NCBI GenBank assembly: GCA_038042445.1
Contig: JBBTED010000021.1
Coordinates: forward strand, 76,024-140,023
DNA length: 64,000 bases
DNA from: Candidatus Firestoneibacteriota bacterium
Lineage (GTDB): Bacteria > Oederibacteriota > D2-FULL-39-29 > JBBTED01
Direction of reading: 5' to 3'
The notes beneath the pieces are model-generated. The model saw nothing but the letters and a program-made list of their open reading frames with translations, was not told the DNA's origin and did not search any database. The position numbers were made by a program, and so were the translations under genes. This document shows positions 22,090 to 58,132 of the stretch, one piece after another; within the stretch, counting starts at the first letter, position 1, and every line of letters begins with the position of its first letter.

Positions 22090-22093
22090 TTAT

Positions 22094-22915
22094 CTACTTT
22101 TTCACCTCGTAGTCATAGAAAAACAACTGCTGACCGTATTTTTCTCTTCCGAAATTTTCAACTATTTCCTTTGTTTTTGCAGAAAGCAAAAAATCAAGAA
22201 GTATTTTCGCACCCTTTTCATTTACTTTTGAAAATTTTTGCGTATTAACAGGTATTAAACTATATAAATTTAACAAATTTTTGTCGTTTTCGAACAAAAT
22301 GGTTAGACTCAAATTTTTCTTCAAAGAAAGATATGAAGAACGATCAGCCAAACAGTATGCTTGTTTTTCATCTGCAATTCTTACAGTAGCCGCCATTCCC
22401 TGGCCTACTTCAACATACTTTTCTTTATTTGGAGTCCTTTCAGCAATTTTCCAGATTTTTAGTTCCTTCTTATGTGTTCCAGACTGATCACCGCGAGATA
22501 CGAACAAAACTGCTTTTTCAGAAATAATTTTAAAAGCATTAGTAATACTCTTTGCAGTCTTAACTCCTGCAGGATCATTTGCAGGTCCCAAAAGCACAAA
22601 ATCGTTATGCATAAAAGTTGTACGACTTATTCCATAACCTTCTTCAACAAATTTTTTTTCATCGTCAGGACTATGCACCCATAAAATATCTGCTTCTCCA
22701 TTCATTCCAAGTTTTATTGCCTGTCCTGTTCCAACAGCAATAGGCTTAACTGTATAACCAGTTTCTGTAGTAAATTTTTCCAGCAAAACATCAAGTAATC
22801 CTGTATCCTGCACACTTGTAGTAGTAGCAAGAATGATTATTTTGTTCTCCTGTGCTATTAACGGTATTGCTATCAGCATTAAACCCAAAAAAAACAGCAT
22901 TATTTTCTTAAGCAT
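22094..22915 (-). CDS. tupA: Tungstate ABC transporter substrate-binding protein
   Basis: ATTTS signature, VGTGQA, SRGDQSGTH, GQGM. Confidence 0.92.
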   Translation of the reverse strand: MLKKIMLFFLGLMLIAIPLIAQENKIIILATTTSVQDTGLLDVLLEKFTTETGYTVKPIAVGTGQAIKLGMNGEADILWVHSPDDEKKFVEEGYGISRTTFMHNDFVLLGPANDPAGVKTAKSITNAFKIISEKAVLFVSRGDQSGTHKKELKIWKIAERTPNKEKYVEVGQGMAATVRIADEKQAYCLADRSSYLSLKKNLSLTILFENDKNLLNLYSLIPVNTQKFSKVNEKGAKILLDFLLSAKTKEIVENFGREKYGQQLFFYDYEVKK

Positions 22916-22930
22916 AGCTTTCTCCTATTC

Positions 22931-22976
22931 AAATCCCCCTATTTCCCCCTTTTTCAAAGGGGGACTAAAGAGGATC
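22931..22976. repeat. Palindromic repeat family C, intergenic
   Basis: AAATCCCCCTATTTCCCCCTTTTTCAAAGGGGGACTAAAGAGGATC. Confidence 0.8.
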
Positions 22977-22994
22977 CTTAAATTATATAATTTA

Positions 22995-24101
22995 TTAATA
23001 GTTTATCTGTACCATCGCGTTAAACTTATTGTTATTTAAAATATTGTCATCCTTCACAAGATAATCCACCAAAAATCTCACAGATTTGTCTGCATAAATA
23101 TTTACTCCTACAGTATAATAGGATAAATATTTACCATCCCAAATATTTTCATCCCATCTTTCAAGTCTCACTACAGGAGCAATTAACGACAAATCAGAAG
23201 ATAGCAATCCAAATGGCTTACCTTCCAGAGTAATTATTGCATCCATAACATCAGAAACTCCAGTTGAGTTTTTGCCTGCTATATACTCAAGAGTAAAAAA
23301 CACCATATCTGTCTCATATTTCCCTGACACTCCGTAATGGGTCTCATATTTGCTTCCTGTTGCTATATAACGATTATAATCAGAAACACTAAATTCCAAA
23401 TCATTCATAGGTTTTGTAATAAGATACGCGGAGAAATCCTTCATACCATCTGTTTCTGACGCATAAGTAGTACCATTTATTACCGCAATTCTCCACGAAA
23501 GAAGATTTTTGAGACTCTCTCCAGGAAGATTGCCATATAACTGAACGCCATAATCATATTTTGATGTAATCACCTTAGACATAGATTGCGGTGTATCAAA
23601 AACTTTTGATTTTGATGCAGGATAATTGTTCTCAAAACTAAACGGAATTATATATTGCCCTATCTTCACCTTTAGCAAGTTTTTATCAGCAACAAAATCT
23701 GCCCATAACTCCTTAAATGTAACTGTAGACAAAGATATTGCTGATGATGAAAATTCAGGTTGTATTTTAAATTCTGTCCATTCATTTAATTTCCAGCTAA
23801 ATCCCACTCTCGCTGTTTTTATTGCAAACGGTTCCTTTCCTCCAAGAGTAGGATCACTTGTATATGAAAATTGAGAATACCCTGAAATTTTATAAACTGG
23901 GGATGATTTTTTTATTGCTTCATCAGTTTTATTCTTTTCTGCCTGAACCAAAAGTTCATTTGCAGTCTTAATATCTTTGCCCTCCAATTCAGTAAGCTGA
24001 CCTTTTTCAACAAGTTTATCTACAAGAATGTCACATTGTCCTGCAAAAAGATTTGTACTACAAATTACTATTACCGCTACTAAAACCATAAACTCCTTCA
24101 T
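22995..24101 (-). CDS. Outer-membrane porin (OprO/OprP-like anion-selective), probably oxyanion uptake
   Basis: Signal peptide, DILVDKLVEKG periplasmic helix, KIGQYIIPFSFE motif, amphipathic strands, terminal aromatic (QINY); lies upstream of tupA. Confidence 0.72.
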   Translation of the reverse strand: MKEFMVLVAVIVICSTNLFAGQCDILVDKLVEKGQLTELEGKDIKTANELLVQAEKNKTDEAIKKSSPVYKISGYSQFSYTSDPTLGGKEPFAIKTARVGFSWKLNEWTEFKIQPEFSSSAISLSTVTFKELWADFVADKNLLKVKIGQYIIPFSFENNYPASKSKVFDTPQSMSKVITSKYDYGVQLYGNLPGESLKNLLSWRIAVINGTTYASETDGMKDFSAYLITKPMNDLEFSVSDYNRYIATGSKYETHYGVSGKYETDMVFFTLEYIAGKNSTGVSDVMDAIITLEGKPFGLLSSDLSLIAPVVRLERWDENIWDGKYLSYYTVGVNIYADKSVRFLVDYLVKDDNILNNNKFNAMVQINY

Positions 24102-24200
24102 ATCTTACTCCTCCCACTTTTATTTTTGCGATACTATCAAAAATGCTTTTGACAGTTTTTTATGAATATGTATTACATCCTACATTTTTCAGTTGTAGTG

Positions 24201-24254
24201 ATAGTCGCAAGCTTTAGCTTGCGGTTTTTCCCGCAGGCTAAAGCCTGCGACTAC
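24201..24254. repeat. REPIN-like doublet (family B2)
   Basis: ATAGTCGCAAGCTTTAGCTTGCG...CGCAGGCTAAAGCCTGCGACTAC; the same arms occur at 31811-31882 and one arm at 36308-36330. Confidence 0.88.
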
Positions 24255-24278
24255 CTTTTATTTGCTTCTCCTTTCTAT

Positions 24279-24605
24279 CTACAAAATTTCTTTATAGCGT
24301 TTATTCACAGATGCTGTTATTTTAGTCTCAATCTTTTCAAATTTTTTCAACAAACCTTTTGCATAATCAGTCAATACTGCCCCTCCACCTCCTTTCCCTC
24401 CTCTGTTTTTAACAAGCAAAATTTTCCCCAATCTTTTTTCTGCTGAATGAATATAACTCCATGTATGGCGATACGACATATTTAACTTCTCTGCAGCTTT
24501 TTTTATAGAATTTGTTTCAGAAACAGCTTTCAAGATAGCATACCTACCCGGACCAAAAACAAGATTACCGTCTTTTTCAAACCAGACTTTTACTTTTATT
24601 TGCAT
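24279..24605 (-). CDS. modE: ModE-family winged-helix regulator (DNA-binding domain only)
   Basis: FGPGR..IL..V....SIKKAAEKLNMSYRHTW...GGKGGGGAVLT. Confidence 0.9.
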   Translation of the reverse strand: MQIKVKVWFEKDGNLVFGPGRYAILKAVSETNSIKKAAEKLNMSYRHTWSYIHSAEKRLGKILLVKNRGGKGGGGAVLTDYAKGLLKKFEKIETKITASVNKRYKEIL

Positions 24606-26189: not shown

Positions 26190-26236
26190 AAATCCCCCCT
26201 TAATCCCCCTTTAACAAAGGGGGTATGGGAGATTTA
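26190..26236. repeat. Palindromic repeat family C overlapping the hemA 3' end and stop codon
   Basis: AAATCCCCCTTAATCCCCCTTTAACAAAGGGGGTATGGGAGATTT; translated as KSPIPPLLKGD-stop. Confidence 0.8.
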
Positions 26237-27252
26237 TTAAACCATTGAATAAATTTGCCTACTCGCTCTTTAATTATAGAATTAGCTTTTTCAAGCTCCT
26301 GCTCTCTATCAGCTATATTCTCATTCACTATTTTTTGCAAATCATCAATATTATACAAATAAACATTTTCTATTTTATTAACTTCTTCATCTATATCTCT
26401 TGGCACAGCAAGATCTATAAAAAATATTGGTCTGTATTTTCTTAAAGGCATTATGGTTTTTATATCAGATTTATGAATTATATAATTTTGGGCACTCGTA
26501 GAACTTATAACAATGTCAATCTCTCTGATCTTTACAAACTTATCTTCAAATCCAACTGATTCACCATTAAACTTTTGCGCAAGTTCATCTGCACGAGATA
26601 TCGTCCTATTGGCAATATAGACTTTTTCAACTCCACGCTCCTGCAAATATTTAAGTGCTAATTCACTCATTTCGCCTGCGCCAATTACCATAACTTTTTT
26701 GCCTATTAATTCTCCAAATATACGTTCTGCCATATCAACAGCAACAGAACTAAGAGATAATGCTCCTTTATTTATACCAGTATTTGCACGAACATATTTA
26801 CCCGCACCTATAGCATTCTGAAACAAAACATTCAAATATTTAGACGTAAATTTATTAGCCTGCGCTATAGAATATGCTTTTTTAACCTGACCAAGAACTT
26901 CATTTTCACCAATTACCATAGAATCAAGACCACTTGTAACTTTAAAAAGGTGTTCTACTGAATAAGGGATTGAATGATAAAAAAATATCTTTTCCAGTTC
27001 TGCAATATCTAATTTACCTACTTCAGAAAAAAATTGCTTTGTTTTTTTTATAGTGTCATTTAAATCCAAAGTTGTACAATATATCTCTGCTCTATTACAT
27101 GTAGAAAGAACAACACATTCTCCCAAAGAAACTTCTGATTTAATCTTTTCAAGAAAATATATTAGTTTATCTTCCTGTATAGAAAATTTTTCTCTTATTT
27201 CTACTGGAGCCGTCTTGTGATTTACACCAAAAACCATTATATTTGGATTCAT
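26200..27252 (-). CDS. hemA: Glutamyl-tRNA reductase, short form lacking most of the dimerisation domain
   Basis: HKTAPVEIREK, STCNRAE, GLDSMVIGENEVLGQVK, GAGEM, DLAVPRD. Confidence 0.95.
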   Translation of the reverse strand: MNPNIMVFGVNHKTAPVEIREKFSIQEDKLIYFLEKIKSEVSLGECVVLSTCNRAEIYCTTLDLNDTIKKTKQFFSEVGKLDIAELEKIFFYHSIPYSVEHLFKVTSGLDSMVIGENEVLGQVKKAYSIAQANKFTSKYLNVLFQNAIGAGKYVRANTGINKGALSLSSVAVDMAERIFGELIGKKVMVIGAGEMSELALKYLQERGVEKVYIANRTISRADELAQKFNGESVGFEDKFVKIREIDIVISSTSAQNYIIHKSDIKTIMPLRKYRPIFFIDLAVPRDIDEEVNKIENVYLYNIDDLQKIVNENIADREQELEKANSIIKERVGKFIQWFNKSPIPPLLKGD

Positions 27253-28059
27253 TTAATTATGAAAATTTGTAGGAAATAATAAATTTATTCCGATAAAAGA
27301 AAATATCATAAATACAAAAGATGCTATTATTATCCATGCTATTTTTTTCCCTCTAAAAAAACCAAATATATGCAAATGCAATAATATTGCATACGTAAAC
27401 CATGTTATAACTGAAAAAATTTCTTTAAAACTTCCAGACCAATAAACCCCTTCCAAGTTCCCAAGCCAAAATGCACCAACTATCATTCCTCCAGTTAAAA
27501 ATAAAAATCCGATTTTAATAGACTGATAACCTAAATTATCCACAATCTGAAGTGCTGGAACAGTTTTTGAAGAAAGTATGTCTGATGCATGCTTCTTGAT
27601 TTTTCTTTCCTGCCATAGATATAAAATTGCACAAACAAATCCTGCTGTAAAGCCTGCGTATCCCAAAAAAGTTAAGGTTGTGTGTACCAACAACCACAAA
27701 TTTGAGAAATAAATCTCTTGTGGCTGGACTTCTTTTAAAAATATCTTAACCACAAGTAAAATCATCGCTATTGGCAACAAAATAAAATTCAATGTTTTTA
27801 CTTTATATTTCAGAGTTATAACTCCAGTTAAAAACACAAGCATCCACGCATAAAATGGCAATGCATTAACTATAGAATTTACTGAAAAACATCCTTCTTT
27901 GGAATACTTTAGGACAAAATAGGAAGTATGCAAAATAAATGCAATCCATAGCGTGAATTGTCCATAGAAATTCAACTCACGTTTATTTATAATTGATTTT
28001 ATATAACTTGCAAAACTTGCAAGGTAAAACAGCAAACTTATTAAAATAATATTTTCCAT
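27253..28059 (-). CDS. ccsA: Cytochrome c assembly protein (CcsA/HemX-like)
   Basis: About eight transmembrane helices, conserved His (LVHTTL), GAFW....G.YW...KE tryptophan-rich motif; adjacent to hemA. Confidence 0.85.
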   Translation of the reverse strand: MENIILISLLFYLASFASYIKSIINKRELNFYGQFTLWIAFILHTSYFVLKYSKEGCFSVNSIVNALPFYAWMLVFLTGVITLKYKVKTLNFILLPIAMILLVVKIFLKEVQPQEIYFSNLWLLVHTTLTFLGYAGFTAGFVCAILYLWQERKIKKHASDILSSKTVPALQIVDNLGYQSIKIGFLFLTGGMIVGAFWLGNLEGVYWSGSFKEIFSVITWFTYAILLHLHIFGFFRGKKIAWIIIASFVFMIFSFIGINLLFPTNFHN

Positions 28060-28083
28060 AAAGATTTTTAAAACCCAAGAATA

Positions 28084-28105
28084 GAGCAGACAAGTCTGCC
28101 CCTAC
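28084..28105 (-). repeat. GTAG-type REP palindrome
   Basis: Minus strand GTAGGGGCAGACTTGTCTGCTC. Confidence 0.65.
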
Positions 28106-28120
28106 GGGTCCAATTTGAGT

Positions 28121-28149
28121 ATTATAAAATACATTGAACTTTATGTAAA
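28121..28149 (-). promoter_or_regulatory. Sigma-70 promoter for ccsA-hemA
   Basis: Minus strand TTTACA-17 nt-TATAAT; homologous copy at 34939-34968. Confidence 0.65.
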
Positions 28150-28153
28150 GAAT

Positions 28154-28187
28154 AAAAAAACCACACCTATATAAGTGTGGTTTTTTT
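28154..28187. terminator. Intrinsic terminator downstream of mtrB (bidirectional form)
   Basis: A7-CCACAC-loop-GTGTGG-T7. Confidence 0.8.
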
Positions 28188-28294
28188 AAAACTCCAAACT
28201 AACGTGTAATTATCTGCGGATGTGCGGAGAGGTATATTAAACACACCGCAGAAGTATTAAAATTTCATCACTATACCGACATAAACACTAATAT

Positions 28295-30532
28295 TTACCA
28301 GTTATATTTTAAACCGATGTAGCCAACATGTGCCGTAAAATCCCTAAGGCTGTCGCCCAAAAAAATTGCGTTGGGACTAGAAACACCGGCTGCTGTTAAA
28401 CCTGCGACAACAGGGACATTCTCAACGGCAAAATCCTCAACATCAAAAATAGTCAGAATGTAACCTCCCACCAAAACCAATCCTTCACCAATCGTATATT
28501 CCGGACGAATAGCTAATTCCTGGAGTGCGCTCTTGGTATCTGCTGGATCAGTTTCAACCACAGTAGTTGTTCCTGGAATATCGCTGACTGTTATTTTTCC
28601 CTTGCCTATGGAATAATTGTATCCCACCATAAGACCTAATTTGGACAAAGGAGAAAAATTCATATCAACACCGATAGTATGAAAAATATCATTATTTGTA
28701 GCTGTCCAATCATTTGCTGCATCTTGAGTAAGCACTGCGCCTGAGACATTAGACCGTTCTGTTGACTTAACATTTTGGATGTCATAAAGTAAAGAAATAT
28801 CGAAAGTTTCATCTAACATCCAATCTGCACTTACTGTTCCACCCTGAGCACTGGATTCCAGAATACCGTACATATAATTGGTATTAGTAGCAATACCACC
28901 AGTTAAATCACCTATACCTGGTTTATATTTATCATCACGGTTAAATGCAGCAAGAGAGAGTCCAATACCGCCAAGGTCTGTCCATTGAACAGTACCCTTA
29001 ACTTCGTTTCGGTCCCTGTCTGCCACATCCACCCGACGCAATCCAGGAAGCTCAATCAAATCGCCTGCAGAGTTTTTATAGTCACTAATCTCAAAATCAT
29101 CCATTCGCCTTAATCCCAAAATATAACCAGCTCGGACAGAAAACGAGGAAACAGGTCTATAGACCAGAGTTCCACGCAAAACACTTTCCTTTGTCTTTTC
29201 CACCTCACGTTTTGTTCTTTCCATAATCTCAAGACCACCACCAGCCGAAGCAGTCACATTGGAAAATACATCCATATCAATATCCACATCCAGATTTTGT
29301 CTATGAGGACTATAAACCTTGCTAGTATAAATGCTTGAACTCCAGTTCTGGTCAGCGGTTGCTTTTCCAGGAAAAACGATTTCCACGGTCTTGTTGCTGA
29401 CTACTTCGGAACGATAACCAACCCTTGTACCCAAAGAATCCCACGGTCTACTGCTTAAAATATAGGATTGATTAAAAATTCCCCTATTACCATTTAGGCT
29501 TGAAACAGGCAATGCAGTCGGATCATAGGCATTAACCGTAGGATTGGCATAAGATCCCGGAACAATGGCTGTATTAATAGTATAAGGAAGAAAAATTGCG
29601 TTTTGTGTCAAAAGAGCATAACTCAAAGTGGTATGAAAATAACTGTTTAATGGAAGATCGAGCATATTCACGTTAAATGTAGCCATATGCTGAGTATTGT
29701 CTGGATAAAGTGAAGTCCGTCCGGATTTTGAATTCGTACCACCACTATAACCAGAGGCAGAAGCTTGATCAGTCAATCTTTTGGGATTATCCCAAGTCAT
29801 TTCTGTTACCTTATTGTGAAATAAAGAATATTCGTAAGCAAGATCCACATTCCAATTTTTTTGCGTCAAAGATGTGTCCAAAGAAAACTTGGTTGTTTCA
29901 TAATCAACAGGTTCAGGCAACTCAATTGTGAAAAAGCCCAAAGTTCCTCCAATTGCCTTGGTTCCGGATTTATTCTCACGATTTGCGCTAATTTTGAAGC
30001 CAACATCACCCAAACTGGGAAGACCAATATCAAACCCATAGGAATCTCTAAGCAACTTGAGGGGTACCGCATTTGTATTTTTGGCTAAATCCAACAACAG
30101 ATCATTGGTTGTGGGAGACGTGGTAGTTGTGGATGCCTGTAGTTTCCGCTGTATCTCATCGGATAGAGTAAAAACTCCAGCACTGATTTCCGAAAAAGGC
30201 GTCCTTGAAATAAGACTAAGAGAATGAGGTGTCTTGTCCCACCATGCGCTAAAGGACAACCCATTTTCTCGTTTATAAAGAAACCTGGCGAACTGATCAT
30301 CTCTCATCACGTTTTTAGCAGTGAAAGAAATACCATAATCTGGGCTTTCAAAATCAAGCCTGTATTTGTTAATAGAAAGCCCTTTAGGAATAACCCGGTA
30401 TTCTTCAAATTTAGCTTCTTGAACGTCAAGGTTTTTATAGTTAAAACCAAACTCAATCTCCTGCTTGACGTTTTCCGCGGCAAAAAGAGACCCCGTCATA
30501 ATTACGAGTGCACACAAAAACAGTATTCGCAT
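28295..30532 (-). CDS. mtrB: MtrB/PioB/MtoB family decaheme-associated outer-membrane beta-barrel
   Basis: Signal peptide after a GAGGAGG SD (ATG 30532), KFEEYR, ELPEPVDY, YSLFHN...WDNP, PDNTQH motifs, terminal W; directly downstream of a decaheme cytochrome. Confidence 0.9.
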   Translation of the reverse strand: MRILFLCALVIMTGSLFAAENVKQEIEFGFNYKNLDVQEAKFEEYRVIPKGLSINKYRLDFESPDYGISFTAKNVMRDDQFARFLYKRENGLSFSAWWDKTPHSLSLISRTPFSEISAGVFTLSDEIQRKLQASTTTTSPTTNDLLLDLAKNTNAVPLKLLRDSYGFDIGLPSLGDVGFKISANRENKSGTKAIGGTLGFFTIELPEPVDYETTKFSLDTSLTQKNWNVDLAYEYSLFHNKVTEMTWDNPKRLTDQASASGYSGGTNSKSGRTSLYPDNTQHMATFNVNMLDLPLNSYFHTTLSYALLTQNAIFLPYTINTAIVPGSYANPTVNAYDPTALPVSSLNGNRGIFNQSYILSSRPWDSLGTRVGYRSEVVSNKTVEIVFPGKATADQNWSSSIYTSKVYSPHRQNLDVDIDMDVFSNVTASAGGGLEIMERTKREVEKTKESVLRGTLVYRPVSSFSVRAGYILGLRRMDDFEISDYKNSAGDLIELPGLRRVDVADRDRNEVKGTVQWTDLGGIGLSLAAFNRDDKYKPGIGDLTGGIATNTNYMYGILESSAQGGTVSADWMLDETFDISLLYDIQNVKSTERSNVSGAVLTQDAANDWTATNNDIFHTIGVDMNFSPLSKLGLMVGYNYSIGKGKITVSDIPGTTTVVETDPADTKSALQELAIRPEYTIGEGLVLVGGYILTIFDVEDFAVENVPVVAGLTAAGVSSPNAIFLGDSLRDFTAHVGYIGLKYNW

Positions 30533-30608
30533 TTGTTTTCCCCTCCTCATTAGATTTATAACTTCTTCTTCAATTTCCATTATTTATATTAGTTTTTTAA
30601 AATCTCAA

Positions 30609-31541
30609 TTACCGCATAAAATAAACACCCGATGGATGATTTGATCCATGTATATTCACATGACAATTTTGGCAAGAACGATTAATAATGCGAGAGTTTT
30701 GTTGTTTCACAGCCGAATCATCATAAAGTGTGCTCGGGTGCCTAGTCCCCACATGACACCGCTGACATAAAAGAAACGGACTTTTGGCTATGAGCATCTT
30801 GTCCTGCAAAGAACCATGAGCATCGTGACAAGTCAAACAATTTTCCTGAACAGGAGCATGCTCCCAAAGAAAAGGACCACGCTTTTCCGCATGACAGGTA
30901 AGACAAAGCTCCCTTGTAGAAGCAGTTTTTAAATTTTTGGCATATGGGGATCCATGAGGGTCGTGGCAAGTAACACAGGAAAGTTTTCCCTCCTTAGTCG
31001 GCATATGAGAAGCTTTAGACATATGAGCCTTTTTATCTTTATGACATTGAAAACAATTTTCAGTCGACGTTTTCTTTTTCAGCAATTTCCCCTGATCCGG
31101 TCCCGGCACAGAAGATTTATGAGAATTGTGACAAGAATTACAGGTTAAACCTTGACGCGAATGTGTGCTCCCCTTCCAATTAGGATGGGTGTTGCCATGA
31201 CATTGCAAACAAGAATTTGCTAATTCTTTTGGATTTGTCTTTGGTCCAAGAATAGTGGCATAACCAGCCGCATTTTTATCTCCTGCAGCTTCCGCATGAA
31301 GCGAACCTGCACCATGACAAGTTTCACAATGTTCAGCTTGATTCAATTGCTTTTCTTTAACAAACGTTTTCGCATGAAAACTTTTTTGAAATTCCTTTCC
31401 ATGGTCATCATGACAAGTCATACATTTCTCAGAACCAATATGTCCAGCTTTTTCCTCTGAGTACGTAACTCGCACAAGAGTAAAAAAACATACAATGCTT
31501 ACAATACAAAATATATTTACTATATATTTCATTTTACCCAT
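30609..31541 (-). CDS. mtrA: Periplasmic decaheme cytochrome c, DmsE/MtrA/MtoA family
   Basis: Ten CxxCH motifs counted (CMTCH, CETCH, CLQCH, CNSCH, CFQCH, CVTCH, CLTCH, CLTCH, CQRCH, CQNCH), EKRGPFLWEHAPV and IHGSNHPSG family motifs, signal peptide. Confidence 0.95.
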   Translation of the reverse strand: MGKMKYIVNIFCIVSIVCFFTLVRVTYSEEKAGHIGSEKCMTCHDDHGKEFQKSFHAKTFVKEKQLNQAEHCETCHGAGSLHAEAAGDKNAAGYATILGPKTNPKELANSCLQCHGNTHPNWKGSTHSRQGLTCNSCHNSHKSSVPGPDQGKLLKKKTSTENCFQCHKDKKAHMSKASHMPTKEGKLSCVTCHDPHGSPYAKNLKTASTRELCLTCHAEKRGPFLWEHAPVQENCLTCHDAHGSLQDKMLIAKSPFLLCQRCHVGTRHPSTLYDDSAVKQQNSRIINRSCQNCHVNIHGSNHPSGVYFMR

Positions 31542-31617
31542 ATTATCCTCCATTTCTCTAATTCTATAAATTATTTCCTAATATATAAGTTTATAACTAT
31601 ACTTGAGTTATTATATA

Positions 31618-31633
31618 TGCAATTTTCGTGCCA
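31618..31633 (-). promoter_or_regulatory. Sigma-54 (-24/-12) promoter for mtrAB
   Basis: Minus strand TGGCACGAAAATTGCA matches the TGGCACG-N4-TTGC consensus. Confidence 0.9.
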
Positions 31634-31722
31634 ACTTTTTAAAATATTTACGATTTTTTTGTGTAGGTTTTATCAATAGATTTACAAGGACAATTTATAA
31701 TCTTAAAACTTGTATAGATTTA

Positions 31723-31758
31723 TGTGTATTTTTACACACAACTGTGTAAAAATACACA
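31723..31758. promoter_or_regulatory. Candidate upstream activator sequence: two palindromic boxes in inverted arrangement
   Basis: TGTGTATTTTTACACA and TGTGTAAAAATACACA about 90-125 bp upstream of the -24 element. Confidence 0.72.
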
Positions 31759-31810
31759 GTTTAGATTAGAGATTGTGAGATAATTCTATTTTCTAGCTTT
31801 TTTCTGTACT

Positions 31811-31882
31811 GGTAGTCGCAAGCTTTAGCTTGCGGTATTATAGCTTTTACCATTTTTCCGCAGGCTAAAGCCTGCGACTACC
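31811..31882. repeat. REPIN-like doublet (family B2)
   Basis: GGTAGTCGCAAGCTTTAGCTTGCG...CGCAGGCTAAAGCCTGCGACTACC. Confidence 0.88.
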
Positions 31883-31928
31883 ATATATAATATAACACAG
31901 TCTAAATGGCAGTTATAGAACAATCTCT

Positions 31929-33305
31929 TTATTCTTTTGATTCAAGAATTCCTAACTTTATTGCTCTATATCTCAAAGAATCACGACTAATTCCAAGAAT
32001 TTTTGCGGCCCGCACTTGATTCCCATTCGTTTTATGCAATGCCTGCAAAATAAGTTCTTTTTCAAATTCTTTGAGTGTAGATTTTTCTTTGGCTGTTTTG
32101 TTAAATTCTGGCATTTCTCCTTCATAACTTCTTAATTCTAAAGGCAAATGAGTAAGATTAATATTCTCTACCGCTCCGATTATAATTGCACGTTCTATAA
32201 TATTTTTTAATTCTCTTATATTCCCAGGCCAGTGATACCGCAAAAAAACATTTTTTACTTCCTTAGACAAAACAGGTGGATTTTTTTTCTTCAATTCATA
32301 GCTATATTGTTTCAAAAAATGCTCTGTGAGTAAAATAATATCTTCCATCCGTTCTCTAAGTGGAGATAATTTTAAAGTAAAAGCATTTAATCGATAATAT
32401 AAATCATTACGGAATTCGCCTATTTTAATTGCCTTGGTTAAATCTTTATTTGTTGCTGCAATAATTCCAACATTAACTTCTATATCTGAAACAGCACCCA
32501 GTGGTCTAAAAGATTTATTTTCAATTAATTGCAAAATTTTTGCCTGAAGACTTAGACCCATATCACCTATTTCATTTAAAAATAATGTTCCTTCATCTGC
32601 ACTATGCACAAGACCTTTTTTTGCTTGTTTTGCATCTGTAAACGCGCCCTTTTCATAACCAAACAATTCACTTTCAAGCAAATTATCCGGTATAGCAGCA
32701 CAATTTATCTCAACGAATGGCTTCTTTATCCTTTTACTTTCGTAATGTATTGCTTTTGCAAGAATATCCTTACCTGTGCCACTCTCCCCACAAATTAAAA
32801 TTGGAGATGCACTGCTATTTACTAATTTTTTTGCAAATTCCACTACTTCCAGTATTGACTTGTTTTTCCCTACAATACTAGAAAAACTATATTGCCTTAA
32901 TTGTTGATTCCTTAACGATTTTGCTTCCACATAAACACTTGCATTTTCAATAACTTTATCAATAAGCAATCTTAACTCATCTAAATCAAATGGTTTATTA
33001 ATATAATCATTCGCTCCTCTTTTCATAGCCTCTATAGCAGTAGAAATGTCTCCAAAAGCTGTAATCATTATCACAGGAATTTCTAAATCGGATTCTTTTA
33101 TTTTTTTCAAAATTTCCAAACCATCAATTCCAGGGAGCTTAATATCACATAAAACCAAATGAGGATGAAAATTTATAAATTTTTCAAAACCATCTTCGCC
33201 AGTTTCTGCCACTACTATATCATAACCATATTTAAATAAATTTTCCTTCAAAGACCACCTTATTAATTCCTCGTCATCAATTACTAAAATTTTCTTTTTA
33301 ATCAT
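31929..33305 (-). CDS. Sigma-54-dependent response regulator (NtrC family: REC-AAA-Fis)
   Basis: ILVIDDE, GESGTGK, ESELFG, GAFTDA, WPGNIREL, Fis HTH. Walker B reads FLNE rather than FLDE. Confidence 0.92.
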   Translation of the reverse strand: MIKKKILVIDDEELIRWSLKENLFKYGYDIVVAETGEDGFEKFINFHPHLVLCDIKLPGIDGLEILKKIKESDLEIPVIMITAFGDISTAIEAMKRGANDYINKPFDLDELRLLIDKVIENASVYVEAKSLRNQQLRQYSFSSIVGKNKSILEVVEFAKKLVNSSASPILICGESGTGKDILAKAIHYESKRIKKPFVEINCAAIPDNLLESELFGYEKGAFTDAKQAKKGLVHSADEGTLFLNEIGDMGLSLQAKILQLIENKSFRPLGAVSDIEVNVGIIAATNKDLTKAIKIGEFRNDLYYRLNAFTLKLSPLRERMEDIILLTEHFLKQYSYELKKKNPPVLSKEVKNVFLRYHWPGNIRELKNIIERAIIIGAVENINLTHLPLELRSYEGEMPEFNKTAKEKSTLKEFEKELILQALHKTNGNQVRAAKILGISRDSLRYRAIKLGILESKE

Positions 33306-33348
33306 AATTTTTTCCCTTATGGTTGATATTCTTTTCACCAGACCATAT

Positions 33349-34740
33349 TCAATTTTTATTCACAGGAAGTTTTATAACAAAACAGGTTTTTTTCACTTCC
33401 TCACTTGTAAATTCAATTATTCCATTATGCATTTTAACAATATTCTGGCTGGTAAAAAGCCCTAAACCTGTACCACCAGGCTTTGTTGTAAAAAAAGGCT
33501 GAAAAATTTTGTCTACATATTTACTTGGTATTCCTTTTCCAGTATCACAAATTGAAATTATCACAAAATCATCTAAAAGTGAAGTGTTTATAGCTAACAC
33601 TCCACCTTTAGGCATTGCACTGATTGCATTCAAAAAAATATTTACAAAAACCTGAAGTATTAATTCTGCGTCTAAATTTAAATCAGGAATTTCCTTACTG
33701 TACTGTTTTTCTACTTTTATTTGATGATCAGTAATATGTTTATGGACAAAGAAAAAAGCTTTTTCAATAATCTCCTGAATGTTAACACTTTTTATTTCTA
33801 ATGTTATTGGCTTAGAATAATTTAACAAATTTTCAACAGTTTTTGCTAATCTATTCACCTGAATATTTATTTTTTCATATATTTCTTTTTGTATCGGTAT
33901 TTTTGCAGATTGCTCTAATGTCTGAAAAGCAGCTTTTATACCTGCCAATGGATTTTTAATCTCATGAGCTAAACTTGCGTAAAGTTTTCCTAAAGATGCA
34001 AGTCTATCTGCATGGGCAATCTGTTCCTGATGATATTTCTATATTGATTCTTTAGATTGTTTCAGATTATCCACCATTTTATTGAAATTTTCAGCTAAAA
34101 CATCCAATTCATTATTTTCTTTAATATCCACATTTACATTCAAATCACCCTGACTTACTTTATTAAATGCTAAAAGCAATTTTTGTATAGGACGATTCAC
34201 TACCTTTTTCATAAAAAATACAAGTACAAGTGATATAACTAATAAAATAGCAAGAGTCATTATAATATGCATTTTAGCATTATCCATTATATTATCCATA
34301 AGAGATTTCCATGAAATGGATATTTCCAAAAAACCTATTATACTTTCATTTGACTTATGACAACCATAACATTTCTTTTTATTTACAATTTGCTGTTTAA
34401 ATACATAAATAGGTTCTCCATTTTTATAAGTCAGTTCTGCGGATTTATTATTTTTTGATACAGACTCAACTTTTAATATTCTAACACCAGACAAATGTTG
34501 TCCTTCATTTAAATTTTTTAGTACACTATCCAATTTTTTCTGTTTGCCAGATAACATAATATCTTCAATACTTTTAAGGATAGTATCTGCTATAACTTTT
34601 GCATGTTCTGATTCAGCTTTCAACCATTCTTTTTTTTGAAATTTTATATCAAAATAACCGGCAATTAAACTTACAATAGAAAATACCAAAATAATAACAA
34701 AAACCAATTGGAAACTTAAATTACGATGAACTTTTCGCAT
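33349..34740 (-). pseudogene. Sensor histidine kinase (periplasmic CxxCH, HAMP, HisKA, HATPase) interrupted by one in-frame TAG at 34039-34041
   Basis: ORFs 34039-34839 and 33349-33948 share a frame; reading through gives ...KQSKESI*KYHQEQIAHADRLASLGKLYASLAHEIKNPLAGIK..., collinear with the intact paralogue at 38485-39870. Confidence 0.85.
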
Positions 34741-34927
34741 ATTTTTTATACACCACACAAAATTCACAGGTTTTATGAGTTCCAAGCACTTCATCACACA
34801 TTGTATTTTTAATTTCCCAGCATGGTAATTTATGGCCAAAGTAAGAAGGACAAGTTTTATAAACAGAACAATCTTTCATTTTCCAACAAGGTATTTTGTC
34901 TGTCCAAAAACTTTTGGTTTCATTCAT
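34721..34927 (-). CDS. Small cysteine-rich two-CW-type domain protein
   Basis: PCWKMKDC...CP...PCWEIKNTMC...CEFCVVY pattern; overlaps the kinase start. Confidence 0.72.
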   Translation of the reverse strand: MNETKSFWTDKIPCWKMKDCSVYKTCPSYFGHKLPCWEIKNTMCDEVLGTHKTCEFCVVYKKYAKSSS

Positions 34928-34938
34928 AGGCAAGAGGT

Positions 34939-34968
34939 ATTATAAAATAGAAACAACTATTATGTAAA
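34939..34968 (-). promoter_or_regulatory. Sigma-70 promoter for the CW-protein/kinase/regulator operon
   Basis: Minus strand TTTACA-18 nt-TATAAT, homologous to 28121-28149. Confidence 0.6.
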
Positions 34969-34972
34969 GAAT

Positions 34973-35008
34973 AAAAAAACCCATGCCTATAATAGACATG
35001 GGTTTTTT
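34973..35008. terminator. Intrinsic terminator downstream of the cytochrome-porin
   Basis: A7-CCCATG-loop-CATGGG-T6. Confidence 0.8.
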
Positions 35009-35107
35009 ACAAACTACACGTATTTTGTCATACGGCACGCGGGAGGTGTAACAAACGCACCATTATCATAGTGTAATTTGAAAACAAATGTAAAACATTT
35101 TTTCCTT

Positions 35108-36262
35108 TTAGAACATATATTGAGCTTCTATAGAAAATTTGTTTGTGTTTTTGGCACTCGCCTGACTAAGTGTATATTCGCCTACGAATCTGCCATACAT
35201 ATATGGTCTCCAGACCAAACCCATTACAGGTCCCTGTGTTTCATCAACAGTTTTTTCTGTATTAGAATCAAAATAGTCATACCTCACATAAGGAGTCACT
35301 ACATCTGAAAGCAGTTTATACCCTACTTCAAGATAACCACCAAGACTATACTGTTTGTCAGCACCTGCATTTTTTGTATTTCTTCCTGACAATAAAAGTC
35401 CTGTTAATGTCCAGGTTGAAGTAAAATAATTGAACATAGGGCCAACTTGATAGAAATTGTCATCAAAACCAGTCATTGGAGCTTGTCCTATGTATCCATA
35501 CATTCCAACTATACTTCCATCACTATCTAATTCATAATCAGCAGTAACATATACGTCTTTAAAATTATTATTATCTACTACGTTAAAATTACTAGCACCT
35601 GTGCCATTAACTACACCCAAAGAAGCCATAACATTCCAACTACATTTATGGCTTAATTCTATGCCATAATTTCTTTGGAATGGTTTATACGGATTGCTTC
35701 CAACAACACTTGTAAGAGCTAATGATCTGTCCTTCCCTAATCTTCCACCTGTTCCATGAATATATAGAAGCTGTGAAAGAATCTGACCGAATCTAACTGT
35801 TGTATAACTCTTTTCATCTCCTGTGGTATACTGAATAAATGCTTCTGCTAATTTGCTACGGGCAAAATCATTAAAATCACTTGTTCCAGAATTTTTGCCT
35901 GAATTTTCATGAAAATACATTTCTGCAAAATATGAAAATCCACTACCCAATGCACCTCCTGTATACAAAGAAAATGCATGCTGTTCAAAGCTGCTTATTT
36001 TTTTATCTTCAGCATTAAATCTGACTTTCCCAGTAAAACTTGCATAATCACTCAAATTCTTTCCTGCTTCTTCATTTGCCATCATATGGCCCATTCTTAA
36101 AAAATCCTGACCTGTTTTGTTAAGCTTATTTACATTCCAATGACACATAGTGCAATCAGCACCATATTTTCTCGCCCATGCTGCAATTGCAAAAGAATCT
36201 TTTGCAACTACACCTAAAGCAAAAGTAATTATTGCAATTACTAACAACATTTTTGCTTTCAT
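35108..36262 (-). CDS. Monoheme cytochrome c-porin fusion, Cyc2-like
   Basis: Signal peptide, then AIAAWARKYGADCTMCHWNVNKLNKTGQDFLRMGH (resembles the Cyc2 N-terminal AxPxFAR-CxxCH-PxLN-G-F-GY pattern), followed by a beta-barrel ending in QYMF. Confidence 0.75.
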   Translation of the reverse strand: MKAKMLLVIAIITFALGVVAKDSFAIAAWARKYGADCTMCHWNVNKLNKTGQDFLRMGHMMANEEAGKNLSDYASFTGKVRFNAEDKKISSFEQHAFSLYTGGALGSGFSYFAEMYFHENSGKNSGTSDFNDFARSKLAEAFIQYTTGDEKSYTTVRFGQILSQLLYIHGTGGRLGKDRSLALTSVVGSNPYKPFQRNYGIELSHKCSWNVMASLGVVNGTGASNFNVVDNNNFKDVYVTADYELDSDGSIVGMYGYIGQAPMTGFDDNFYQVGPMFNYFTSTWTLTGLLLSGRNTKNAGADKQYSLGGYLEVGYKLLSDVVTPYVRYDYFDSNTEKTVDETQGPVMGLVWRPYMYGRFVGEYTLSQASAKNTNKFSIEAQYMF

Positions 36263-36307
36263 TTCTTTTACCCTCCTATTTTGTAATCTTTTAATACTCT
36301 CAAAACT

Positions 36308-36330
36308 CGCAGGCTAAAGCCTGCGTCTAC
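36308..36330. repeat. REP single arm (family B2)
   Basis: CGCAGGCTAAAGCCTGCGTCTAC. Confidence 0.8.
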
Positions 36331-36378
36331 AATGTAATAAATATTTCTACTTATTTACTTATCACCTCCTTTATCTAT

Positions 36379-36774
36379 TCAACATTTTTCTATTTTACAA
36401 ATTTTTATTTTGTCAGAATTGATATTTTTTTTCAAACAATTTATAAGATTTTTATTAATTATTTCTTTTATCTTAAAAATTTTCTCAGAAGTTAATGTTG
36501 CTCCTTTATCTTTCATTAATAAAAAACCGAGTAAAGACTCAGACATGTCTTTAACTAATTCGGGTATTATCTTTTTATGTTTTTCCGAAATACATTCCGC
36601 ACTTAAATATTCATTAGTAGTATTTTCTATTGCTTCATCTATTAAAAATGATATTTCTCTCAGTCCACTTCCCTGATACTTAATATCTTTAAAAGATTTG
36701 TATATAGCATCTTTGAAATCACTACAAATTTTGTCCTTATCATTTAGGCATAATAACGCTTTATATTTTTTCAT
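36379..36774 (-). CDS. Hypothetical helical protein, first gene under the second sigma-54 promoter
   Basis: 131-aa ORF from ATG 36774; the longer ORF-track start reads through a REP doublet. No family recognised. Confidence 0.5.
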   Translation of the reverse strand: MKKYKALLCLNDKDKICSDFKDAIYKSFKDIKYQGSGLREISFLIDEAIENTTNEYLSAECISEKHKKIIPELVKDMSESLLGFLLMKDKGATLTSEKIFKIKEIINKNLINCLKKNINSDKIKICKIEKC

Positions 36775-36783
36775 ATATATTAT

Positions 36784-36840
36784 ATAGCTGCAGAGCAAAG
36801 CTCTGCTAAAAAACAGCAAAGCTTTCGCTTTGCTGCTACA
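36784..36840. repeat. REPIN-like doublet (GTAGC type)
   Basis: ATAGCTGCAGAGCAAAGCTCTGCT...AGCAAAGCTTTCGCTTTGCTGCTACA; related arm at 40526-40551. Confidence 0.7.
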
Positions 36841-36896
36841 TAAACCATACAAAATCCATTAAATATTAGAATGGTTAATCTATTATACATTATTTA

Positions 36897-36912
36897 TGCA
36901 AGAACTATGCCA
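36897..36912 (-). promoter_or_regulatory. Sigma-54 (-24/-12) promoter for the cytochrome-porin operon
   Basis: Minus strand TGGCATAGTTCTTGCA with correct GG-N10-GC spacing. Confidence 0.85.
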
Positions 36913-37040
36913 ATTTTTTAATGTATTATAAAATGTATTGAAATTACTGTAGTTATATTGATAAATTTAATAGTTAATAGAAGAATATTACCATAGATAA
37001 TTGTATTGTTTTAGGACAATATTTGAATAGTTGTATTATT

Positions 37041-38399
37041 TTAAGACAAATCTTTAGATATTGAATATTGCTGGATTTTCCTATAAAGAGTATCTCTGGA
37101 TATTCTTAATATTTCAGCAGCTTTTAATTTATTTCCATTTGTAGATTTAAGAACTGAAATTATAGCAGATTTTTCTGATTCCTCAAGGGAACATACTTTT
37201 ACAGTATCAGAATTATTAGTTTCTAATACTCGCATATGCGAAGGTAAATCCTGTTCAACAAAAATATTTTTATTCACTTTAATTGCGAATAAACCTTCTA
37301 TTAAATTTTCCAATTCACGAACATTGCCTGGCCAGTTGTATTTTACTAAAACATCCAATGCTTCACGTTCAAAACCCTCTACTTTCTTTTTGTATTTATC
37401 ATTAAATTTATCAATAAAATATTTCACAAGAAGTGGAATATCTTCTTTTCTTTCTCTAAGTAGAGGAATTGTGATAGTAATAGTGCTTAATCTATAGTAC
37501 AGTTCCTTTCTTATGCCACTTTTATTTCCATCAGAAATTATATTATGCGATGATGCAGCAAGAATTCTTACATTTACAGCTATTTCTTTTATATCACCTA
37601 CAGGCCTTATTTTTTTGTCCTGAAGGACTCTTAAAAGTTTTGCCTGACTTTCCTTTGGCATTTCACTAATTTCATCAAGCAATATTGTCCCTCCTTCACT
37701 TGCTCTGAATATACCTATATAATCCGAATTCGCACCTGTAAAACTTCCTTTTTTATAACCAAAAAGTTCACTCTCAACAAGATTTGAAGGAATACCTCCA
37801 CAATTTATCGGCATAAATGTATTATTTTTTCTATTACTTAAATTATGTATTGCTCTTGCAACAAGTTCTTTTCCAACACCAGTTTCTCCAAGTATCAAAA
37901 CAGGACAATCTACAGATGCCGATGCCCTTATTCTATCAAAAACATTTTTCATTAATTTACTTTCTCCAATAATATTTTCGATGCTATATTTCGAATTAAG
38001 CTGGCTCTGTAAATGAGCAACATCAGTCTCAAGTTTCATTATTTTAAATAAGCGATTAATACAAATCATAATCTGATCTTTAGTAAAAGGTTTAATTATA
38101 TAATCAGAAGCTCCCATTTTTATTGCTGTAACTGCATCCTGAATTGTTCCATAACCAGTCATCATAATAACTTCAATAGCAGGACTATGTTCTTTGATTT
38201 TTTTCAAAAGCTCAAATCCATTCATTTGACCCATTCTAATATCGGTTATAATAATTTTAACGTCCTGCTCAATCTTGATTTTCTCAATAGCTTCCTCACC
38301 AGAATATGCCTTAACAGTAGAAAATCCCTGTCTTAAAAAAAGTTTTGCGCAGGTCTCTACCATACCCTTATCATCATCAACAATTAAAATTTTTATCAT
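37041..38399 (-). CDS. Sigma-54-dependent response regulator (NtrC family)
   Basis: ILIVDDD, GETGVGKE, ESELFG, GSFTGA, LLDE, WPGNVREL, Fis HTH. Confidence 0.92.
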   Translation of the reverse strand: MIKILIVDDDKGMVETCAKLFLRQGFSTVKAYSGEEAIEKIKIEQDVKIIITDIRMGQMNGFELLKKIKEHSPAIEVIMMTGYGTIQDAVTAIKMGASDYIIKPFTKDQIMICINRLFKIMKLETDVAHLQSQLNSKYSIENIIGESKLMKNVFDRIRASASVDCPVLILGETGVGKELVARAIHNLSNRKNNTFMPINCGGIPSNLVESELFGYKKGSFTGANSDYIGIFRASEGGTILLDEISEMPKESQAKLLRVLQDKKIRPVGDIKEIAVNVRILAASSHNIISDGNKSGIRKELYYRLSTITITIPLLRERKEDIPLLVKYFIDKFNDKYKKKVEGFEREALDVLVKYNWPGNVRELENLIEGLFAIKVNKNIFVEQDLPSHMRVLETNNSDTVKVCSLEESEKSAIISVLKSTNGNKLKAAEILRISRDTLYRKIQQYSISKDLS

Positions 38400-38405
38400 A
38401 TCATG

Positions 38406-38464
38406 TATCATGCTGAATTTATTTCAGCATCTCTTTTAGACCCTGAAACAAGTTCAGGGTGACA
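38406..38464. repeat. Palindromic repeat family A doublet, intergenic
   Basis: TATCATGCTGAATTTATTTCAGCATCT...AGACCCTGAAACAAGTTCAGGGTGACA; arms nearly identical to 8998-9066. Confidence 0.88.
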
Positions 38465-38484
38465 ATTCAAAGCTTGTCCTGAAT

Positions 38485-39870
38485 TCACTTCAATATTGGA
38501 AAACTTATTGTAAAAGTTGTATATTTATTTACTTCACTTGCAACAGTAATTGTTCCTCTGAGTTCTTCTATTAGTTTCCTACATATCGCTAAACCAAGAC
38601 CTGTTCCATTCTTTGCTTCTTTTGTAGTAAAAAATGGCTCAAATATTTCGTTGAGGTTTTCTTTAGATATACCAGAACCATCATCTGTAAAATCAACCTC
38701 TATAAAATTATTATCAATAACTTTTGTTTTCACACTAATAGTTCCACCCTTTTCAATAGCATCAAAGGAATTAGAAAAAAGGTTTAAAAAAATCTGTTCA
38801 AGTTGATCACAAGATGCAAGCACTTTCACTTTATCAGTTTCAGCAACGTCTATTTTCAAAGAGACATCATTCTTTCTAAAAATGTGGCTAAGTATTTCTA
38901 TTATATCAGTTAAAACTTTATTGAAGTTACATTCCTGCAATTTTTCTTTTGCTTTAGTAGAACGAGAAAAACCCAACAAATGTTCAACTATTTCTTTGCA
39001 CCGTTGTAATTGATGATTTATAAATTTTAATTCTCCAAGATAACTTTTGTTTTTTATATCTTCCATCAACATTTCTGCACGTAACATTGCAGAAGCTAAT
39101 GGAGTTTTCATTTGATGTGCGATTCCAGCCGCAATTTGTCCAACCAATACCATTTTATCAACCCTATTTATTTTTTCTTCCTGAAGCCTTACAATTTCTT
39201 CCTGTGAATTCTCCAAAGCATTTAACATTGAATTGAATTGTTTTGAAATAACTCCAAATTCATCATTTCTGGATACAGATAAACGTTTTTTTGTAACACC
39301 CTTTTCTACCTGCTTCATCGCATCCAATAATACTTTTATAGGCGTATTTACTATAAAAAATATTGCTAAGCCAATCAAAAGTGAAGTGATTATTACAATA
39401 GCAAAAAAAGAGTATATATGTATTTTTAACTCTTTTTTTACACGTAATAAAGCAGGAGTAATAGATTTAGAAATACGTATATATCCTAATACAGGTTTTG
39501 TATTTTTATGACATTTAAAACACTCTTTTTTGTTAAAAATTGGAACAAAATAAACAAAATTATCCCTTAAATCTATATTTACACCCTTTGCTATTATCTT
39601 AACCTCTTGATTGCTATTCAAAATCGTAATTTCATTAAAACCAATATTTAATACGAGTTTTTTTATAAATTTTTCTATTTCACCAATTTTTTTATCCAAC
39701 ATTGAATTTTCAATCTGTTGATGAATTGTTTTACAAAAAAGATTTAGCCGACGTGTTTCATCATCAATAACCCATTCATTTGTGTGAGATATCTCTACAT
39801 ATAAATATAACCCAAGCAATACAAACAGAATAAATGTTATTGCAATAATTAATTTAAAAGCTATTTTCAT
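38485..39870 (-). CDS. Sensor histidine kinase with periplasmic CxxCH motif and HAMP domain
   Basis: TM - NKKECFKCH - TM - HAMP - AHQMKTPL - N box - DDGSG - PFFTTK - GTGLGL. Confidence 0.92.
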   Translation of the reverse strand: MKIAFKLIIAITFILFVLLGLYLYVEISHTNEWVIDDETRRLNLFCKTIHQQIENSMLDKKIGEIEKFIKKLVLNIGFNEITILNSNQEVKIIAKGVNIDLRDNFVYFVPIFNKKECFKCHKNTKPVLGYIRISKSITPALLRVKKELKIHIYSFFAIVIITSLLIGLAIFFIVNTPIKVLLDAMKQVEKGVTKKRLSVSRNDEFGVISKQFNSMLNALENSQEEIVRLQEEKINRVDKMVLVGQIAAGIAHQMKTPLASAMLRAEMLMEDIKNKSYLGELKFINHQLQRCKEIVEHLLGFSRSTKAKEKLQECNFNKVLTDIIEILSHIFRKNDVSLKIDVAETDKVKVLASCDQLEQIFLNLFSNSFDAIEKGGTISVKTKVIDNNFIEVDFTDDGSGISKENLNEIFEPFFTTKEAKNGTGLGLAICRKLIEELRGTITVASEVNKYTTFTISFPILK

Positions 39871-56269: not shown

Positions 56270-56297
56270 ATTATAGCAATTCCAAATACTTTTTCAA
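56270..56297 (-). promoter_or_regulatory. Sigma-70 promoter for tRNA-Gly overlapping the integrase stop codon
   Basis: Minus strand TTGAAA-16 nt-TATAAT with extended -10 TGn, 8 nt before the tRNA. Confidence 0.7.
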
Positions 56298-58114: not shown

Positions 58115-58132
58115 TGTTATTCCTCAAAGTCA

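Follow-up and report, generated by a model that had tools for sequence, protein, structure and literature searches.

Two outer-membrane electron conduits, each downstream of a heme-motif kinase and a sigma-54 activator, in one locus of a Candidatus Firestoneibacteriota genome

Little is known of how bacteria sense the redox partner outside and choose between electron conduits in the outer membrane, or of what divergent Cyc2-like proteins do in anaerobes. Both questions are raised by a stretch of 64,000 nucleotides (hereafter the window) from a Candidatus Firestoneibacteriota bacterium (GTDB lineage Bacteria; Oederibacteriota; D2-FULL-39-29; JBBTED01; GenBank assembly GCA_038042445.1, contig JBBTED010000021.1, positions 76,024 to 140,023 of the forward strand). 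Between positions 26200 and 39870, the window carries 11 genes, all on the minus strand, in the order kinase 1, activator 1, small open reading frame (ORF), monoheme porin, CW protein, kinase 2, activator 2, decaheme cytochrome, MtrB-type barrel, ccsA and hemA. We interpret this region as probably serving extracellular electron transfer in an anaerobe from groundwater. It would be built around two copies of an apparently portable cassette that comprises a heme-c Cache kinase, a sigma-54 activator, an enhancer and a -24/-12 promoter. With evenly balanced confidence, we propose that each heme sensor would signal periplasmic redox state or nitric oxide (NO) to its own activator, which would in turn induce one conduit exchanging electrons with menaquinol through proteins encoded on another contig (C27), probably in the outward direction. 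All parts are of known kinds. Their wiring is new within the reach of our literature search, recurs for each half of the locus, and is damaged on one side here.

The first module begins with sensor kinase 1 (38485..39870), whose intact frame predicts a transmembrane segment, a heme-c Cache domain (CxxCH at residues 117-121, Met57), a second transmembrane segment, and HAMP, HisKA (His252, an HQ variant) and HATPase domains. The activator that follows is likewise intact (37041..38411) and combines receiver, AAA+ (GSFTGA, DE in Walker B) and Fis-type helix-turn-helix (HTH) domains. It has the marks of a sigma-54 enhancer-binding protein, namely GETGVGKE, GSFTGA, LLDEI, the HTH and a -24/-12 site downstream. 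That site (TGGCA-N6-TTGCA, 36897..36912) matches the consensus, and two direct repeats of the TGT-N11-ACA type, 30 nt apart, lie upstream of it (37002..37048). The conduit of this module is a Cyc2-like fused monoheme cytochrome-porin of 384 aa (35108..36262), with a single CxxCH at residues 37-41.

The second module opens with a 68-aa cysteine-rich protein of two-CW type (34721..34927; NF045718 at E 0.46, below cut-off), which overlaps the start of sensor kinase 2 (33349..34740). This kinase again carries a heme-c Cache domain (CxxCH 124-128, Met62) and a phosphorylatable His259, and in the assembly its frame contains a TAG codon at 34041-34039. Activator 2 (31929..33305) has GAFTDA, and NE in place of DE in Walker B. 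Two tandem palindromes, TGTGTA-N4-TACACA (31723..31758, with no strand of their own), and a second consensus site, TGGCAC-N5-TTGCA (31618..31633), precede an MtrA/DmsE-family cytochrome with ten CxxCH motifs (30609..31553, likely start 31541) and an MtrB/PioB-family beta-barrel (28295..30529, in a frame open from 30580). Apart from the palindromes, all sites, repeats and junctions described here lie on the minus strand. Re-reading the sequence bore out the gene order given in the initial annotation, together with the CxxCH motifs of both kinases, both sigma-54 sites and both terminators. It also revealed the stop in kinase 2 and the Walker-B change in activator 2, which that annotation had passed over.

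What would the two kinases sense? When both sensor domains are aligned with seven relatives, a Met, the CxxCH and a preceding I-x-N are invariant, and a profile of this alignment matches two Geobacter sulfurreducens proteins, GSU0935 (3b42, E 2.5e-10) and GSU0582 (3b47, E 1.9e-7). In 3b42, the invariant Met corresponds to residue 26 of the chain; counting back from the heme His makes this Met60 of GSU0935. For sensor 1, modelling predicts a Cache fold between two membrane helices, with the WalK Cache domain and 3b42 among the structural matches. By these comparisons, both sensors are predicted heme-c Cache domains of the GSU0582/GSU0935 type that keep the switching Met, and redox or NO sensing is likely because that residue is retained. 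Heme-c sensors are already known (also treated in part of PMC3831638). According to the available text of PMC8396549, Met60 of the Geobacter pair is a ligand of the reduced heme and is released on oxidation, it is also displaced by NO and CO, and the two proteins have different potentials (-156 and -251 mV). By analogy, the periplasmic heme of each window sensor would exchange its distal Met on oxidation or NO binding, the kinase would phosphorylate what we take to be its cognate activator, and the sigma-54 promoter of one conduit would open. The window domains share with the Geobacter proteins the periplasmic Cache fold, a CxxCH insertion before the last strand, the Met60-equivalent ligand, and occurrence as a pair. 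They differ in being some 25-30 residues shorter and in being fused to histidine kinases with sigma-54 activators rather than forming chemoreceptors, and they would act on the transcription of an electron conduit. One more heme-c Cache kinase, the third in the genome and with two CxxCH motifs, is encoded on another contig (G000:C27:11475-12815), with a NiFe hydrogenase operon on one side and formate dehydrogenase genes on the other.

The NO-binding behaviour of such domains raises the alternative that the locus is an NO or nitrosative-stress regulon, in which NO would be the signal for both sensors and the conduits would be induced to divert electrons in the presence of nitrite or NO. Domains of this kind have been grouped as sCache_heme, and one signalling member binds NO tightly, according to part of a 2026 preprint (PMC12889525). 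The genome also encodes a gNOR-like enzyme, gNOR being a putative NO reductase family, and its gene pair adjoins hemerythrin-domain and related genes. However, the authors of that preprint describe their tested NO sensor as having no distal protein ligand, whereas the window sensors keep the redox-switched Met of the Geobacter type, and no NO-detoxifying gene lies in the locus. We consider this alternative highly improbable.

Control of the two conduits by sigma-54 is suggested by the promoters themselves. A search with the strict pattern finds 20 sites across the 2.8-Mb assembly, compared with 0-3 in five base shuffles, and rpoN is present on contig C63. The tandem palindromes lie approximately 90-125 nt upstream of site 2 and occur at that place only in the genome; the direct repeats lie at a comparable distance upstream of site 1, and their pattern occurs twice in the genome, both times here. 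Both sets are candidate enhancers of the respective activators. Terminator-like hairpins follow the porin and mtrB, and each is followed in turn by a sigma-70-like promoter with 11/12 matches. At junction 1 (34939..35060), a hairpin is succeeded by an intrinsic terminator (35008-34974) and a promoter (34968-34939); junction 2 (28121..28245) has the same build, with its terminator at 28188-28153 and its promoter at 28149-28121. These housekeeping-type promoters would drive the second sensor pair and ccsA-hemA. Terminators are enriched in the region (17 against 5.6 expected), and sigma-70-like matches are not, in so AT-rich a sequence (76 found, 71 expected). The upstream hairpin of the junctions could be a processing or stability element; a known RNA family was rejected, as all eight Rfam matches fell under the gathering score. 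A REP-like palindrome occurs at 31810-31883 and 36308-36343 and matches the genome exactly at 114 places.

The leader of the first module is unusually long. The porin starts approximately 620 nt after promoter 1, compared with roughly 50-150 nt in its relatives, because the leader is occupied by a hairpin-forming genomic repeat of approximately 110 nt (36775..36885; 11 blastn hits, eight of at least 90 nt, self included) and by an orphan ORF of 131 aa (36379..36774). The repeat may attenuate transcription of the module. The orphan has a GC content of 23.5%, a search recovered its own sequence alone among 48 candidates, and it is probably a passenger outside the conduit.

Each half of the locus recurs elsewhere, with the control cassette ahead of such a conduit in other lineages. 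Relatives of the porin were collected from 97 loci (45 genomes and 52 metagenome contigs, many of them short and some redundant). MtrB is adjacent to the porin in four of these (L010, L012, L028 and L053), and a sigma-54 activator is near it in three. A loose sigma-54 pattern stands no more than 300 nt upstream in seven of the 23 porin loci of at least 38% identity, where 0.33 would be expected, although these relatives are not independent; among more distant loci, the figure is 1 of 61, against 0.96 expected. A second set of 67 MtrB loci comprised loci from all nine further positives among 99 genomes searched in the host's phylum, 12 of 31 and 40 of 74 positives in samples of two other phyla, and six more. 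An activator is nearby in 14 of them, and a Cyc2-like porin in three (L171, L172 and L213, the last repeating L028). Among the findings that would refute its reading, the initial annotation had listed that the two modules are never co-located elsewhere; that does not hold, since the porin family adjoins MtrAB in six other loci overall.

The complete order heme kinase, activator, MtrA, MtrB occurs in two of the 67 MtrB loci, which are close kin (L136 and L224, in genomes G100 and G540). Further, a class relative of the host (G002, L125) has a two-CW kinase without heme, an activator, a sigma-54 site, a decaheme, a barrel, ccsA, resB, ccsA and hemA, such that a domain related to the 68-aa CW protein is fused to the kinase ahead of the decaheme. 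The porin profile matched 37 of 73 MtrB-bearing genomes and the sensor profile 22. Twenty further sensor loci were read, which with L136 and L224 account for 22 of 29 places. An activator is nearby in 13 of the 20, and a multiheme gene in eight. One of them (L330, genome G653) has a heme kinase, an activator, a sigma-54 site, a Cyc2-like porin and a tetraheme gene in succession. The three kinases in L330, L136 and L224 share a single clade (100/99), and the activators of these loci fall beside activator 2 rather than activator 1 (seven rows, SH-aLRT 99, in a quick tree). Consequently, one cassette appears to serve either conduit. Judged by gene order and these trees, it is portable, and other lineages carry it ahead of one conduit or the other.

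Are the conduits what they were first taken to be? The porin has a hydrophobic N-terminus (read by eye) followed by its single CxxCH, and at 384 aa it exceeds the 365-aa criterion for Cyc2. Its model (pLDDT 88.5, from 46 sequences) predicts a short helical heme region and 16 strands. The best structural match is OprP (2o4v; Z 26.2, rmsd 2.8, 299 residues aligned), which is also the template named for Cyc2PV-1 in the available text of PMC8406198; other 16-strand porins match as well. These are the features that Cyc2PV-1, Acidithiobacillus ferrooxidans Cyc2 and Cyt572 have in common, namely a signal peptide, a CxxCH right behind it, a 16-strand OprP-like barrel and more than 365 aa. The same source defines Cyc2 by AxPxFAR[QK][TY] upstream and PxL downstream of CxxCH, and here both motifs fail. 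The window porin reads AIAAWARKY-3-CxxCH-3-NKL, with P and F replaced in the first motif and L kept and P replaced in the second. Its clade is rich in W-for-F variants, and it also differs from Cyc2 in its anaerobic host and sigma-54 control. The strict motif is found in 37 of 191 full-length porin relatives, and PxW in 69. Against a barrel-only profile built from those 37, the window barrel reaches 181 bits, the genome's best heme-less porin 79.5 bits and shuffled sequences less than 1 bit; the 37 were recruited by the porin family's own profile, which makes the comparison partly circular, and they include no tested Cyc2. In a FastTree of 52 selected rows, the porin falls in a clade of 26 (99) that includes two strict-motif members. 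We found no family name or solved structure for it, and searching the supplements of PMC7029218 for Geothrix or other named taxa gave no match by which to place it. The Cyc2-like designation thus stands for the predicted build and not for the published motifs, and membership of the Cyc2 cluster is a candidate assignment.

The surroundings of porin relatives offer several further observations. Two pentaheme proteins of the genome (C27:20551-21195 and C159:11791-12390) combine a first heme with a Cyc2-like N-terminal motif and a c554-like tetraheme part; relatives of the latter stand after the porin in L330 and before it in L053, and the pentaheme proteins are candidate periplasmic partners. Close porin relatives in L010, L011 and L033 lie near FeoB-like genes, with Fur-like and heme synthesis genes in L011 as well (by eye from N-termini), which hints at iron handling. 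In a distant clade (L014-L017, L020-L026, L042 and others, from Opitutales, Holophagaceae and Bdellovibrionales), the usual neighbours of the porin are a heme-less kinase and a short response regulator, and several of these loci lie near five-heme and four-heme genes of NrfA/NrfH size.

In the second conduit, the decaheme scores 236 bits against TIGR03508 (cut-off 192) and matches MtrA of 6r2q (6r2q_A, E 1.7e-49), with which it aligns over 34-312; its distal histidines are in place (by eye), and it has no PioA-type extension. The barrel passes PF11854 (248 bits, cut-off 23) and falls below the cut-off of TIGR03509 (197 bits, cut-off 240). The identification of this conduit as an MtrAB/MtoAB system was upheld by the cut-offs of TIGR03508 and PF11854. 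As the initial annotation stated, the window holds no MtrC, CymA or MtoD gene. MtrAB, MtoAB and PioAB share with it a DmsE/MtrA decaheme followed by an MtrB-family barrel, with distal histidines aligning with those of MtrA. The window locus differs in lacking MtrC, CymA, MtoD/ImoA or PioC, in having a dedicated heme kinase and sigma-54 activator ahead of the conduit, and in its likely partners, which are multiheme-cytochrome-b fusions encoded on another contig. Because MtoA and PioA form no clade apart from MtrA, according to part of PMC8805035, the direction of electron flow is unreadable from the MtrA/B sequence.

Both conduits would suit a pair for iron oxidation as in Sideroxydans, with Cyc2 for dissolved Fe(II) and MtoAB acting on minerals, and with the electrons passed to carbon fixation or to the reduction of nitrite or NO. 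The Cyc2-like architecture and its OprP template agree with this, MtrAB without MtrC resembles MtoAB or PioAB, and the genome has an octaheme nitrite-reductase-like protein and the gNOR-like enzyme. Further, Sideroxydans lithotrophicus ES-1 holds both conduit types in one genome and employs them differently according to condition (PMC13741234, in part). There, however, both serve Fe(II) oxidation and the available text names no dedicated sensor, whereas here the conduits are adjacent and each has a sensor-activator pair. The failed PxFAR and PxL motifs and the lack of a function-specific MtoA/PioA clade also argue against iron oxidation, and Keffer et al. rate divergent homologues as the least certain, in the portion of their work available. 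The genome presents a further difficulty. In this assembly, 90% complete, we found neither cytochrome bd nor a canonical oxygen or nitrate reductase, and no heme-copper oxygen reductase motif of canonical form. Of the three molybdoenzymes found, two represent formate dehydrogenase types and the third has no assignment. In the sole full heme-copper subunit I (C49:591-2766, L268), Asp replaces the first copper His, and the partner subunit lacks the CuA cysteines (by eye); both features are described for gNOR in part of PMC11214002. We consider iron oxidation an unlikely function of the pair.

The assembly encodes ACS/CODH, FDH-N, NiFe hydrogenase subunits and MenA, and the stretch or part of it is contained in 11 sequencing runs from four studies, of which those labelled are groundwater; no RNA data set is listed among those that cover the region. 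The host thus looks anaerobic, which makes electron export likelier than iron oxidation; the iron-oxidiser framing of the initial annotation fits poorly with this metabolism. Three multiheme proteins are encoded on contig C27, namely two cytochrome-b fusions, with 11 and 19 hemes, and a 13-heme protein whose N-terminus is of NapC/NirT type. Relatives of these three proteins flank MtrAB in 13, 9 and 4 of the 67 loci, respectively, and the closest relatives of the 11-heme protein at MtrAB have 47-54% identity. These neighbourhoods suggest that the C27 multiheme proteins are the likely link to the quinone pool. They resemble Geobacter CbcL, which works outward. Electrons from formate or H2 would most likely pass to menaquinol, then to the multiheme-cytochrome-b and NapC-like proteins, and out of the cell. 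The monoheme porin would serve small soluble redox partners, with flow that may be outward or inward, and MtrAB would serve solids and humics.

Several observations weigh against the proposed dual control by heme sensors. Kinase 2 is a single frame (34740-33349) broken by its TAG between HAMP and the phospho-His259, and one sequencing run (X1, a possible source of the assembly) has the same stop. The predicted product is a sensor-HAMP fragment; natural receptors of sensor and HAMP only exist (10.64898/2026.05.25.727664, in part), which implies no such role here. The Walker B motif of activator 2 reads LFLNEI, an Asp-to-Asn change at codon 32576-32574 and the one NE among 36 distinct activator segments (28 DE, five DD, two not parsed). 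The same change is in the contig of run X2, and activator 2 shows further departures from its relative in L224. The Walker-B Asp binds magnesium and matters for hydrolysis. The remaining sigma-54 activator motifs are present, and GAFTDA is common to the six other members of its clade. The two pairs are not each other's closest relatives (28% identity between the kinases, 38% between the activators), and taken singly both sensor domains, shorter than their relatives, fall below Pfam cut-offs (PF21563, 21.4 and 20.4 against 27); single-sequence searches of the PDB with them gave chance matches only. No MtrC/OmcA-type surface cytochrome was found, the sole 10-heme ORF in the 90%-complete assembly being MtrA itself, which weakens the case for solid-phase reduction. 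Within the DNA examined, no heme kinase accompanies any of the 97 porin loci or 65 of the 67 MtrB loci, and no second locus with both modules appeared among the 97 porin, 67 MtrB and 20 sensor loci, many of them short.

The stop was compared across four runs. Run X2, from the same study as X1 and another sample, gives a 4524-nt contig whose sole difference from the window is this base, which yields a glutamate codon; its depth of 9.39 of 15.6 implies a second contig with the stop. Run X4, from another study, has the same intact codon in one contig at depth 2.5, weak taken alone, and run X5 does not cover the position. The stop is most likely a real allele, or polymorphism, since X1 agrees with the window and the depth in X2 fits both letters. 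For the same reasons, an assembly error was rejected. Pyrrolysine read-through was also rejected, as the genome has no PylS match (TIGR02367), where a Methanosarcina control scored over cut-off. In another genome, a heme-sensor kinase region (L339, G640:C57) is broken by two stops. The second regulatory pair of the window is damaged in this assembly, and module 2 control is eroding or polymorphic in the population. The claim that each conduit lies behind a heme-motif kinase, a sigma-54 activator and a -24/-12 site holds for the architecture, whereas a working redox switch is a hypothesis. In the assembled strain, MtrAB may be silent or driven by cross-talk.

Does the allele itself belong to a switch? 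In a stronger form of the proposal, two sensors of different midpoint potential would select the monoheme porin or the decaheme wire according to the redox state outside, and the segregating nonsense allele would turn off the decaheme branch in some cells. We consider this doubtful. On the other side stands an accreted and partly decayed locus with no coordinated switch, in which module 2 was inserted beside module 1, regulators are being lost, and at most one conduit is under sensor control. In its favour are the stop allele, the changes in activator 2, the leader of module 1 with its repeat and its orphan ORF, and the failure to find a second twin locus. The two junctions point the same way. 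They have 80% identity over 82 nt and occur as two copies in the genome, and their terminator stems differ while both still pair. As they stand as direct repeats on both sides of module 2, its entry by insertion or old duplication is suggested. Their promoter half also precedes a ccsA-resB-hem operon on contig C95. Recent local duplication of one sensor-activator pair was rejected on the low identities above and on their different clades; the kinase tree leaves both window kinases unresolved. However, runs X2 and X4 have the intact kinase codon, both sigma-54 sites, both candidate enhancers and both conduits are intact, and the GC content of the locus equals that of the genome (32.2% and 31.9%). 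A decayed locus is thus improbable in our judgement, and we retain the proposal that each conduit would answer to its own heme sensor.

The last two genes concern heme supply and maturation. They encode a CcsA/ResC-type heme lyase subunit (27253..28059), of which a second copy stands beside ResB on contig C95, and a HemA glutamyl-tRNA reductase (26200..27252), the sole copy found in the assembly. The locus had been called self-contained, and it is not, since other contigs carry ResB, RpoN (C63), the remainder of the heme pathway and the probable inner-membrane partners. Two genes downstream of hemA, ABC genes of the tungstate/molybdate type are accompanied in the window by a porin and a ModE-like regulator (20333-24605). 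At 56294-63254, an integrase-like gene and small ORFs of slightly lower GC content (29.8%) form a possible integrated element.

In the open-access literature we found no account of heme-kinase or sigma-54 control of Cyc2 or MtrAB-type conduits, in line with the impression of the initial annotation that the architecture was undescribed; subscription papers were not covered. For each of the two conduit types, the cassette supplies candidates for the sensor, the activator, the enhancer and the promoter. It also bears on marker surveys, in which this anaerobe would be scored as an iron oxidiser, or its porin missed, depending on the motif filter.

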